From a phage: 64,000 nt of DNA. Position numbers and translations under genes: made by a program. The stretch lies in the NCBI GenBank assembly GCA_024790105.1, contig GCA_024790105.1_3053.1; one strand, given 5' to 3'. This document shows positions 3,010 through 64,000 of this stretch, one piece after another. The notes below the pieces were generated by a model, which had not been told where the DNA came from, did no database searches, and saw only the letters and a program-made list of their open reading frames with translations. Position 1 is the stretch's first letter; each line of letters begins with the position of its first letter.

Positions 3010-4597
<1,588 letters not shown>

Positions 4598-7411: not shown

Positions 7412-8111
7412 TTAATTCTTCTACCTTTTTTCGAGATATTCCTAGAGCTTTAGATGCTCGATGTATTGATTGATATTCTATACCGTTTATTTTTACAGCA
7501 ATTAAGTTATGGGGTTTTAATCCCTTTGGATGAGGTTTACTGACGTATTCTTGATTATCGTTTTCAGAGATATTATCAAGCTTTCGACACTTAAAGCCTT
7601 TATGTTGAGACCTTTTGCCTTTGCATACGGCCGACATTGCCGAAGCATTGAGTGAATGTAGTTCGCAAAATTCTCTTAGGCCTTTATGGATTTCTTCATG
7701 ACCGTCCGGGAAAGTAAATACCCAAGTTGTTTGAAGTTTTTCTCTATGCTCGTCAGTTGCCGGAATACCTTTGTTCCAAGCTGGTTTGCCTTTATTATTT
7801 TCAGATACAGAAATAGCCAATTTTCTTCTAAGCCACCCATGGCGTTTATTGGTGTTCTTTCGTTCAATATTATCTTCAGAATAAACACACATCATATTAG
7901 CGGCAAATACCAATTTATGATTATCTGGATATATCTTTACTAATAATTGATGAGCTATGTAATGCTCTTCGGGTGTCAAATCTACCAGGTTTTCCTTTGT
8001 ATCAGAACCACCAATACACAGAGGTATAATATGGTGTGATTCGGTATAGCAATCTAATTTTCTGTTCTTAGCTTTAGAAATAAGGTTATTGTAAATTTTA
8101 GAATAATCCAT
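7401..8111 (-). CDS. HNH homing endonuclease, Mob family (mobE-like), inserted within nrdA
   Basis: 236 aa; HNH motif HHIIPLCIGGSDTKENLVDLTPEEHYIAH; N-terminus MDYSKIYNNLI paralogous to mobA N-terminus; AGGA RBS; stop overlaps NrdA-b start. Confidence 0.85.
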   Translation of the reverse strand: MDYSKIYNNLISKAKNRKLDCYTESHHIIPLCIGGSDTKENLVDLTPEEHYIAHQLLVKIYPDNHKLVFAANMMCVYSEDNIERKNTNKRHGWLRRKLAISVSENNKGKPAWNKGIPATDEHREKLQTTWVFTFPDGHEEIHKGLREFCELHSLNASAMSAVCKGKRSQHKGFKCRKLDNISENDNQEYVSKPHPKGLKPHNLIAVKINGIEYQSIHRASKALGISRKKVEELNEY

Positions 8112-54641: not shown

Positions 54642-55981
<1,340 letters not shown>

Positions 55982-60489: not shown

Positions 60490-61639
60490 TTAACTGTTCG
60501 AGGTCAGTTTCTAAATCAGCTGCTGATTTACTTTTACTTTCTGGGGATTTAAATTTTTCAACCTTTGAGTTAATCAATTCATCAACTTCAGCTTCAACAA
60601 TTTCATTACTATCAATAGCACCTAACTGATAAGCACGTTTAATAGCATCTCGGAATGGTTGATGCTTAAATAAAGGACCCCAGAATGTAGTGCAGTTAGT
60701 ATCTTTTGCACGCCAAGATTTTTCTTCGCGAATCATCTCGCCGGTTTCTTCATCAAGAAATTCACGAGCATACCAGCCATTTTTAGGTTTTACCACGAAT
60801 CCTAATTCTAGAGCCATATCTAACAATCCAGAATAAGGATCGATACCACCGTCAAATTTAACATCAATAAAGAATTTACTTTTTTCTTTAACGGTACGAG
60901 ATTTTTCTACATTTAGAACAAATTGATACCCCTGAAGATCAGAACCATCTTTAATCTGGCGCTTACCAATAATGAATACGGTATCAGCCGAATACATCGG
61001 TCCAGTACCACCTCCCATAACTGTTTTACTAAACATTTCTTGTGTTTCGTATGTATGATTAATAGCAATACATGGAATATTTTTAGTACTAAAATAGGGA
61101 GTTACGATACGAAATAAGCTTTTCATTGTTTTAGCTCTAGTCATATCACTAACAACTTTTTCATTTAAAGCATCTTCAGTTTCTTTCTTAGAAGCTAAGT
61201 TACCAAGTGAATCGATAAAAACGACTACCTTTTCGCCGCGTTCAATTGCATCCAATTGATTAACCATGTCAATACGTAATTGCTCAAGTGATTGAACCGG
61301 AGTATGAATTACTCGTTCTGGATCGACTCCCATAGACCGCAAATAAGCAGGAGTAATACCAAATTCACTATCATAAAACAAACATACTGCATCAGGATAT
61401 TGACGCATGTAAGATGACACCATTGTTAATCCAAAGTTTGATTTAAATGATTTTGATGGACCTGCCAAAATTAACAGACCAGATTGCATACCACCAGTAA
61501 TTTCACCAGAAAGTGCAATATTCATCATAGGAATTTTTGTTCGAACTACATCCTTTTCATTAAAGAATTTAGATGCTGTTAATTCTGCAGTCAATTTAGA
61601 AGTAGAAGCTTTAATCAAACGAGATTTTAAATCAGACAT
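60464..61639 (-). CDS. uvsX: recombinase UvsX (RecA-like)
   Basis: 391 aa; Walker A GPSKSFKS; recognised as T4 UvsX. Confidence 0.95.
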   Translation of the reverse strand: MSDLKSRLIKASTSKLTAELTASKFFNEKDVVRTKIPMMNIALSGEITGGMQSGLLILAGPSKSFKSNFGLTMVSSYMRQYPDAVCLFYDSEFGITPAYLRSMGVDPERVIHTPVQSLEQLRIDMVNQLDAIERGEKVVVFIDSLGNLASKKETEDALNEKVVSDMTRAKTMKSLFRIVTPYFSTKNIPCIAINHTYETQEMFSKTVMGGGTGPMYSADTVFIIGKRQIKDGSDLQGYQFVLNVEKSRTVKEKSKFFIDVKFDGGIDPYSGLLDMALELGFVVKPKNGWYAREFLDEETGEMIREEKSWRAKDTNCTTFWGPLFKHQPFRDAIKRAYQLGAIDSNEIVEAEVDELINSKVEKFKSPESKSKSAADLETDLEQLSDMEEFNE

Positions 61640-61647
61640 ATAATACC

Positions 61648-62313
61648 TTATAGTAGTGTTCTTGTTCCACGAAATACTTCGAGCATTCTTGCATAAGATT
61701 TATTTGGAAATCCAGCTTCAATTGCTAATTTTTTAAGCTTAATAGCACCGGGTTTTCCAGAGTTTTCCCATATTTCTTTAATCTTTTCAATGTTATCCCA
61801 CATTATTGGGTCACGTTTATGTGATGGTTTATTTCTATTATAACCATATGGATTATTAAGCAAAGCTTCTTTTCGTTTTGCTTTAGTTTCTTCTGACTGC
61901 TTTTTGCCTAGCTGGGCTTTCCGGCAAACATCACTAAATCCAAGATGTTTTGGTTTTCCTTTTTGAGCTTTTGAAATTTTTTCTTTGGTTTCTGATGAAA
62001 CTCTATAACCAATTCTTCTACCACCCTCTCCACCAATTTTTAAATTATAAGTCATAGGATCATTTACCACATCTATTGTTACTAATTCTCTTTCAGCATC
62101 ACGGGCTGATTTAAAATCTTTATAAAACCCAAGAATGCTTAAATTAAAATTTTTCTTACCATACTTTTTCTTGGCTTGTGCTAATAAAGTTCCTGATCCC
62201 ATATAACCATCATTTAAATCATCGGTTGAATGAGTTCCATAGTAAATTTTATTATTAACTAAATTAGTTATAACATAAGTATAATTATATTTCTTTTCTT
62301 TATGTCTTTTCAT
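61648..62313 (-). CDS. segA: GIY-YIG homing endonuclease SegA
   Basis: 221 aa from MKRHKEKKYNYTYVITNLVNNKIYYGTHS; position between uvsX and the glycosyltransferase locus. Confidence 0.8.
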   Translation of the reverse strand: MKRHKEKKYNYTYVITNLVNNKIYYGTHSTDDLNDGYMGSGTLLAQAKKKYGKKNFNLSILGFYKDFKSARDAERELVTIDVVNDPMTYNLKIGGEGGRRIGYRVSSETKEKISKAQKGKPKHLGFSDVCRKAQLGKKQSEETKAKRKEALLNNPYGYNRNKPSHKRDPIMWDNIEKIKEIWENSGKPGAIKLKKLAIEAGFPNKSYARMLEVFRGTRTLL

Positions 62314-62317
62314 GTCA

Positions 62318-63166
62318 TTAATCAACTGCTATTGGATGAATAGCATTAAACTTATGAAATGCTTCTGATTTTTCTTTACGCGAAACACACATGCGAAGAA
62401 CCTTTAATGGCTCGTCTTCTTCACCCAATGATTTTCGTTTTTCAATATTCGATGTTTTCCAACGAGCTTGCTCTGGAAACTCTCTATTGATTTGCTCAAG
62501 CGCTCTATTATGTTTAGAATTACTACGAATTGAACTACACCCACCGGGAGCCTGTGATTTTCCAGATACAACTAGATATTTGAACAAGGCCAAATGCGGA
62601 TAACCTTGATTAATTAAATTGAGAAATGCATACATATCTTCACATAAATCAATTTTTCCATACCCAATTTGTTCTGTCGTAAGTTTTCCGAGGTCATACC
62701 ATGTATTCGTGAATCCATATGAGTTTTCACGATAATTACCCCAAGATGAAGTAATTTTAAAAATTGGTAGACGAGCATGACCGTGATAATACCCGCAATC
62801 CATGGCATCTTCAACGTATTGAATTAATTCATAGAACTGTTCACGAGTTAATTGATTAATTTTATCTACACGCCGTTTATCGTCTCTCTTTCGTATTGAA
62901 CTCATACGAATAGTAGTATCATCATCAATCATCCAGATTCGTTGACCTGCATACATATCAGTAATTGCTTTACGAGTACCGGAAATTCCATTAACATCAT
63001 CAGGAATAGTTACAATTTTAGCTCTAGACCCATAAGCGTCATGATAAGCTTTTTCTTCATGTTCACGCACTACAATATGGGGTTCATAATCAGTCGGAAA
63101 CATATTAAGGGCAGAAACTGCCCCTACACGTTGATAGCTCGGAATTACGAATTGAATCATTTCCAC
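62318..63166 (-). CDS. putative GT-A fold glycosyltransferase (not T4-type beta-glucosyltransferase)
   Basis: 282 aa; candidate DxD motif WMIDDDTT; occupies the locus of the 351-aa beta-gt in T4 but is unrelated to the beta-gt sequence as I recall it. Confidence 0.5.
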   Translation of the reverse strand: MEMIQFVIPSYQRVGAVSALNMFPTDYEPHIVVREHEEKAYHDAYGSRAKIVTIPDDVNGISGTRKAITDMYAGQRIWMIDDDTTIRMSSIRKRDDKRRVDKINQLTREQFYELIQYVEDAMDCGYYHGHARLPIFKITSSWGNYRENSYGFTNTWYDLGKLTTEQIGYGKIDLCEDMYAFLNLINQGYPHLALFKYLVVSGKSQAPGGCSSIRSNSKHNRALEQINREFPEQARWKTSNIEKRKSLGEEDEPLKVLRMCVSRKEKSEAFHKFNAIHPIAVD

Positions 63167-63897
63167 TCACCGTTATAATCTTTTTTCATAATATGAGTTT
63201 CGCCAGTATTCCACCAATGATCAACCAAGTAAAAATGACGAGAATATACATGAAGACTTCCAACATTCCATATAATAGAACCTGCTTTATACTGACGAGT
63301 TGAATCGCCTGCATTCAAATCAGATACTAATTTATCTAATACGTATTTTTGCCATGCATAGTCATTACGATAGCCTGCCCAACAGTCATTGCTTCTCATA
63401 TTAACAACCGCATTGACTTTCTTATCACGAATCAGGTACTGTACTGTATTAGTACACATGAAATCTGACATACCATCTTTATTGTAGTCAAATTGCATGG
63501 ATGGACGAGTATAAATCATGATACCACGTCGAGAATCAGGATTTTGACCAAGTTCAGCTAAACACATATCATACTGGGCATAGTTATCTTCTGACCAGAT
63601 AGCCCAACCATAATTCGAGTTAATTTCACCTTTAGAAGATGCTACCTGCTGCCAAATCTTCGGTGTTTCACCCGGAATATCTTTAACGAACAAGCTCTTA
63701 GATTTATACCATTCAAGTTCACGCTGAATGTATTCATCATTAAGAGCGCCAAAAATAAACGGTTCATCTGCTACAAATGATGCGCCAATAATTTCAATAG
63801 TTTTAACACCAGTTTTATCAACTACGAAATCTTTTTCTTTTAATGCAAGCCCCAAATGAAGACGGATTTCTTCAACTGTCATAGAGTCACTAATCAT
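63157..63897 (-). CDS. 42: dCMP hydroxymethylase gp42
   Basis: 246 aa; thymidylate-synthase-like fold; recognised as T4 gp42. Confidence 0.9.
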   Translation of the reverse strand: MISDSMTVEEIRLHLGLALKEKDFVVDKTGVKTIEIIGASFVADEPFIFGALNDEYIQRELEWYKSKSLFVKDIPGETPKIWQQVASSKGEINSNYGWAIWSEDNYAQYDMCLAELGQNPDSRRGIMIYTRPSMQFDYNKDGMSDFMCTNTVQYLIRDKKVNAVVNMRSNDCWAGYRNDYAWQKYVLDKLVSDLNAGDSTRQYKAGSIIWNVGSLHVYSRHFYLVDHWWNTGETHIMKKDYNGEWK

Positions 63898-63902
63898 TTA
63901 AA

Positions 63903-64000
63903 CCTCAATTGATACATTCATATTTAACTTGTAACAGTAATAAACCCCAACCTAAAATAATAGTTGGAATCATAAGAGGAACCGTTACACTATAGTATAT
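63903..64000 (-). CDS. partial ORF (3' end only), possibly Imm membrane protein
   Basis: hydrophobic C-terminal peptide ...IPTIILGWGLLLLQVKYECIN running off the window end; position after gene 42. Confidence 0.35.

Follow-up and report, generated by a model that had tools for sequence, protein, structure and literature searches.

The minus-strand ORF between segA and gene 42 in the stretch of phage DNA analysed here (64,000 nucleotides in its whole length, hereafter the window) very probably encodes a T2/T6-type beta-glucosyl-HMC-alpha-glucosyltransferase (ba-gt), a TET-associated glycosyltransferase (TAGT) of the gentiobiosyl-hmC pathway, and we put the probability of this assignment at about 0.93. 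Our basis for it is the identity to the T2 and T6 enzymes, family membership, the predicted fold, the conserved residues and the locus, and the link between gene and product and the effect on Brig1 are taken from the literature on a T6 deletion. The finding is correct, ordinary and already known, and adds nothing new: two 2026 papers, including PMC13216743, state that TAGT/ba-gt lies at a position syntenic with T4 beta-GT and that TAGT, to which AlphaFold3 assigns a GT-A fold, groups beside GT2. The window has the common Tequatrovirus arrangement and T4 is the outlier; according to PMC13216743, only 6 of 753 GT-encoding phages, T4 included, have alpha-GT paired with beta-GT. The departure from the norm that the original prediction implied was thus misleading, as ba-gt is what T4-like coliphages ordinarily have at this locus and most Tequatroviruses share the arrangement, with T4 exceptional (PMC13216743).

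Results

An ORF of 282 aa containing WMIDDDTT had been claimed between segA and gene 42, and it is present there, at 62318..63166 on the minus strand, when read from the GTG at 63166. This length holds for the mechanical ORF, which is two codons longer than the version with an ATG start; the likelier protein begins with the ATG at 63160 and has 280 aa. By direct reading, this ATG overlaps the stop codon of gene 42 as ATGA, and in both T2 and the closest relative, phage 235Ecol030PP, the product is annotated as 280 aa with the same 4-nt overlap with gene 42. Because of the overlap and these annotations, which speak against the GTG at 63166, the true start is most likely ATG 63160, and the gene then spans 62318..63160 (minus strand). 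Through the ATGA overlap, its translation is probably coupled to that of gene 42. The match to PHROG 842 (E = 3.6e-88), together with tblastn matches in 689 phage records, establishes that this is a real gene and no chance ORF.

The PHROGs family in question, phrog_842, is labelled 'beta-glucosyl-HMC-alpha-glucosyltransferase', and in Pfam the protein was assigned to PF20691 (TAGT) with 43.1 bits against a gathering cutoff of 27.5, the match covering the profile end to end, with residues 5-209 aligned to positions 2-205 of its 205. Over 280 aa the protein is 96% identical to its T2 counterpart (AP018813) without gaps and 96% identical to that of T6 (AP018814), where the sole gap is the Asp missing from that record; identity to the annotated ba-gt of 235Ecol030PP is 99%. 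Substitutions relative to the T2 and T6 enzymes amount to ~4% of positions, roughly 10-11 residues. The suggestion of a second glucosylation enzyme of the T2/T6 type is therefore borne out. Among the phage records found by tblastn, ~470 have at least 95% identity and come from Escherichia, Shigella, Yersinia and Salmonella Tequatroviruses, and ~200 at 60-80% come from T4-like phages of Klebsiella, Enterobacter and Citrobacter.

The ba-gt gene has a different lesion in each of two deposited T6 records. In MH550421 (locus 7924-7976) codon 10 is TAG and the gene is annotated from Met20, and in AP018814 (locus 2135-2974) the DDD motif is short of one Asp codon, lost in frame. Either stock mutations or errors of sequencing could account for these lesions.

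Two other identities were considered and rejected. Homology to T4 beta-gt was not supported, as BLASTP of the window protein against it gave nothing better than E = 4.2, the beta-gt Pfam family was absent among the Pfam hits of the window protein, and tblastn against the T4 locus returned only a 7-codon 3' remnant of ba-gt. An arabinosyltransferase, or an enzyme for some other sugar, was set aside in view of how close the protein is to the T2/T6 enzymes (96% identity), and of the T4-like gene 42.

The AlphaFold model of the window protein is confident (pLDDT 94) and consists of a single Rossmann-like alpha/beta/alpha domain of the GT-A type, so that the two-domain GT-B fold was not found. Thus the call of a glycosyltransferase, made from the DxD-like motif, is upheld both by the PF20691 score above the gathering threshold and by the predicted fold, and the claim that the protein is unlike T4 beta-gt agrees with the BLASTP result and with the difference between GT-A and GT-B; the proposed check by homology and fold prediction turned up no full-length beta-gt homology and a predicted glycosyltransferase fold. 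A Foldseek search against BFVD gave as its top match a ba-gt of a Klebsiella phage (TM 0.96), followed by TAGT-domain proteins. In the fold comparison, GalNAc-T1 came first with 13.5, followed by B4GALNT1 (13.1), GnT-I (12.9), AvpGT, a GT2 beta-1,3-glucosyltransferase (12.9), BcsA (12.2-12.5), and TarS and TarP (12.0).

Family depth came from an exhaustive HMMER search, which yielded 353 representatives at E <= 1e-3; a word-indexed protein search gave 11 clusters only. In the conservation alignment of 79 full-length members, reaching down to ~20% identity, D80, D175, G186 and G207 are invariant, and I6, R11, R63, D79, D81, G206 and R212 are conserved in at least 90%. By conservation and the model, D79-D80-D81 of WMIDDDTT (codons at 62918..62926, minus strand) correspond to a DxD-type metal and nucleotide-sugar binding motif, which comes after strand E74-78 in the model, as in GT-A enzymes. 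Inverting GT-A enzymes hold the metal and the diphosphate with the DxD motif and use an Asp or Glu as the base. E174-D175 of the CEDMY motif (codons at 62636..62641, minus strand) contains the candidate catalytic base, D175, which by analogy with the ED motif of GT2 enzymes may act as in an inverting GT-A enzyme. Sequence and profile searches against PDB detected no solved structure of any ba-gt relative, and hence the roles suggested for individual residues rest on fold analogy together with conservation.

Directly upstream of ba-gt in the direction of transcription lies gene 42 (63157..63897, minus strand), which encodes a dCMP hydroxymethylase of 246 aa belonging to the thymidylate-synthase family (PF00303, E = 3.7e-15) and has 94.9% DNA identity to T4 gene 42. 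On the other side, segA (61648..62313, minus strand), which starts 4 nt past the ba-gt stop with the ATG at 62313, codes for a 221-aa homing endonuclease of the GIY-YIG type that has GIY-YIG and NUMOD3 domains and is identical to T4 SegA at 220 of 221 residues; it is part of the locus context and stands outside the modification pathway. Beyond segA the gene order is uvsX, gene 40 and gene 41. The position of ba-gt directly downstream of gene 42 and before uvsX agrees with the gene order of T2 and T6, and the T4 gene at the matching slot is beta-gt, of 351 aa. In T6 and in 235Ecol030PP, alpha-gt lies ~11-12 kb further on, past the end of the 64-kb window, which ends at gene 42. Because this position falls outside the window, we take alpha-gt to be present in this phage from its presence in those relatives.

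In a scan for promoters and terminators over 61400-64000, counts were not above those in shuffled sequence. A GC-rich hairpin of 9 bp (TAGGGGCAGTTTCTGCCCTTA), with a T-rich tail after it, lies at 63106-63126 (minus strand), ~35 nt past the ba-gt start and within ba-gt codons 12-18; sites of this kind are no more numerous in the region than shuffled sequence would predict. In the record of Yersinia phage fPS-2, a terminator feature is listed under the match to ba-gt. Elsewhere in the window, 54642..55421 (minus strand) encodes a 259-aa D12-class N6-adenine DNA methyltransferase (PF02086, E = 7.6e-51) of the Dam-like kind that T4 and T2 also have.

The tract from 61000 to 62313, which takes in segA together with the adjoining ~640 bp at the 5' end of uvsX, shows 0-1 mismatch per 200 nt against T4; across it T2 and T6, both of which are without segA, differ by 22-26%. 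The combination of T4-type segA and a T4-type uvsX 5' allele with an adjoining ba-gt is uncommon, and among 514 phage records matching a 2.5-kb query that contains segA next to ba-gt, coverage of the query reaches 80% or more in only 9. The best whole-region match of 39001-64000 in the phage collection had ~96% identity (vB_vPM_PD112, CE1). Given this value, the source is a Tequatrovirus identical to no deposited genome, and a mosaic of T4-like and T2/T6-like segments.

A segment of 27 nt at 62314..62340 (minus strand), spanning the last seven ba-gt codons, the stop codon and the 4-nt spacer, is also found in T4 (NC_000866, locus 4237-4263) with one mismatch. In T4, which is without ba-gt, this 3' remnant of the gene sits directly upstream of segA. 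Divergence between T4 and the window is confined to the interval from the final five gene 42 codons (~63160-63174) to 22 nt before the ba-gt stop.

Discussion

The T-even modification pathway is established and runs from gp42 through hm-dCMP and hmC in DNA to the action of alpha-gt and then of ba-gt (PMC11078745, PMC13216743, PMC13390438). In the window phage, gp42 would make hm-dCMP, replication would incorporate hmC into the DNA, and alpha-gt would place an alpha-glucose on hmC. The ba-gt product is then expected to take a further glucose from UDP-glucose and join it by a beta-1,6 linkage to alpha-glucosyl-hmC, yielding gentiobiosyl-hmC. As a beta product from UDP-alpha-glucose implies an inverting enzyme, the expected ligands of D79-D80-D81 are the divalent metal and the diphosphate of UDP, and D175 in CEDMY would be the probable base of the reaction.

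Whether phage hydroxymethylcytosines carry one glucose or gentiobiose is decided by ba-gt, and this alters how sensitive the phage is to defences specific for glucose, among them the Brig1 glycosylase and enzymes of the GmrSD type. T6 without ba-gt retains only alpha-glucosyl-hmC and becomes more sensitive to Brig1 (PMC11078745), so the effect on modification-dependent defence anticipated by the original prediction has already been published for T6. All this is settled knowledge for T2, T6 and a large number of environmental Tequatroviruses, and for the window the value of the assignment is only that it places the DNA modification of the phage in the T2/T6 type rather than the T4 type.

The fraction of cytosines that carry gentiobiose in the window phage cannot be predicted from sequence, since this fraction varies widely among phages with near-identical enzymes: gentiobiosyl-hmC makes up ~5% in T2 versus 72% in T6, and in the Durham Tequatroviruses the ratio of hmC to glucosyl to gentiobiosyl forms is ~1:2:2, or gentiobiosyl-hmC makes up about two-thirds (PMC13390438). 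Thus ba-gt could be present and contribute little, leaving DNA that is mono-alpha-glucosylated, with about a quarter of the hmC bare, T2-like gentiobiosylation of ~5% and a small effect on restriction. T2 itself, with its 96% identical gene, is the precedent for such an outcome, and the dam-like gene of the window points the same way, as the 2026 study of the Durham phages found the partially gentiobiosylated group to be the carriers of a Dam-like gene, although this is a correlation only (PMC13390438). However, the ORF of the window is intact, apparently coupled to gene 42 and free of the lesions of the two T6 records, and most characterised Tequatroviruses carrying ba-gt show substantial gentiobiosylation, so that we consider a minor contribution rather unlikely.

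A far less probable alternative is that this member of the TAGT family has drifted in specificity, whether for the sugar, the acceptor (for example bare hmC or beta-glucosyl-hmC) or the linkage, and produces a modification unlike that of T2 and T6; the family is of mixed function, TAGTs occur paired with alpha-GT or beta-GT or alone, two kinds may exist (PMC13216743), and the enzyme has diverged by ~4% from those of T2 and T6, but every family-invariant residue is intact in a protein 96% identical to both, the substitutions are mostly conservative (I/V, S/A, K/R) and common to hundreds of Tequatroviruses, and gentiobiosyl-hmC was seen by LC-MS in Durham Tequatroviruses with the same gene set (PMC13390438).

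The T4 remnant bears on the origin of the T4 locus. On the simplest reading of the remnant and the breakpoint in gene 42, a beta-gt cassette replaced ba-gt. We lean towards the view that the window preserves an arrangement ancestral to the T4 locus (gene 42, ba-gt, segA and T4-type uvsX), and that beta-gt arrived as a cassette which cleanly took the place of ba-gt in an ancestor that had segA. Alternatively, T4 may have acquired segA from a ba-gt phage, which likewise requires that segA once adjoined ba-gt. If the cassette replacement is true, it would provide a trace, at the level of sequence, of the recent gain of beta-GT that was proposed in PMC13216743. We found no mention of the 27-nt ba-gt vestige in those parts of the literature that we consulted. 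As for the T4-type uvsX tract linked to segA, uvsX is the gene in which SegA reportedly cuts (review PMC2988022), and the tract thus looks like the usual endonuclease-linked allele carried by homing.

Among known systems, the ba-gt (ggt) genes of T2 and T6 are closest, as they share with the window the slot between gene 42 and uvsX and the DDD and ED motifs, and T2 shares in addition the ATGA overlap between gene 42 and ba-gt. In the window, however, ba-gt is followed by a T4-type segA, whereas T2 and T6 have none. T4 beta-gt resembles the window gene in its slot between gene 42 and segA/uvsX, in belonging to an hmC DNA pathway and in forming a beta linkage. Unlike the 280-aa window enzyme, for which a GT-A fold is predicted, T4 beta-gt has 351 aa and a GT-B fold (PDB 1JG7; PMC13216743), and its acceptor is bare hmC rather than alpha-glucosyl-hmC. 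In TAGT systems of PF20691, hmC is generated on DNA by a TET/JBP dioxygenase, whereas in the window phage it would arise from the action of gp42 on dCMP before replication, and the window enzyme would act on a base that is already glucosylated. Finally, the GT2-type inverting GT-A enzymes AvpGT (9jma), TarP (6h1j) and TarS (5tze) have in common with the window protein a Rossmann-like core, a DxD past the fourth strand and an acidic residue at the ED position, but they show only 8-17% sequence identity to it, and their acceptors are lipid, teichoic acid or protein rather than DNA.
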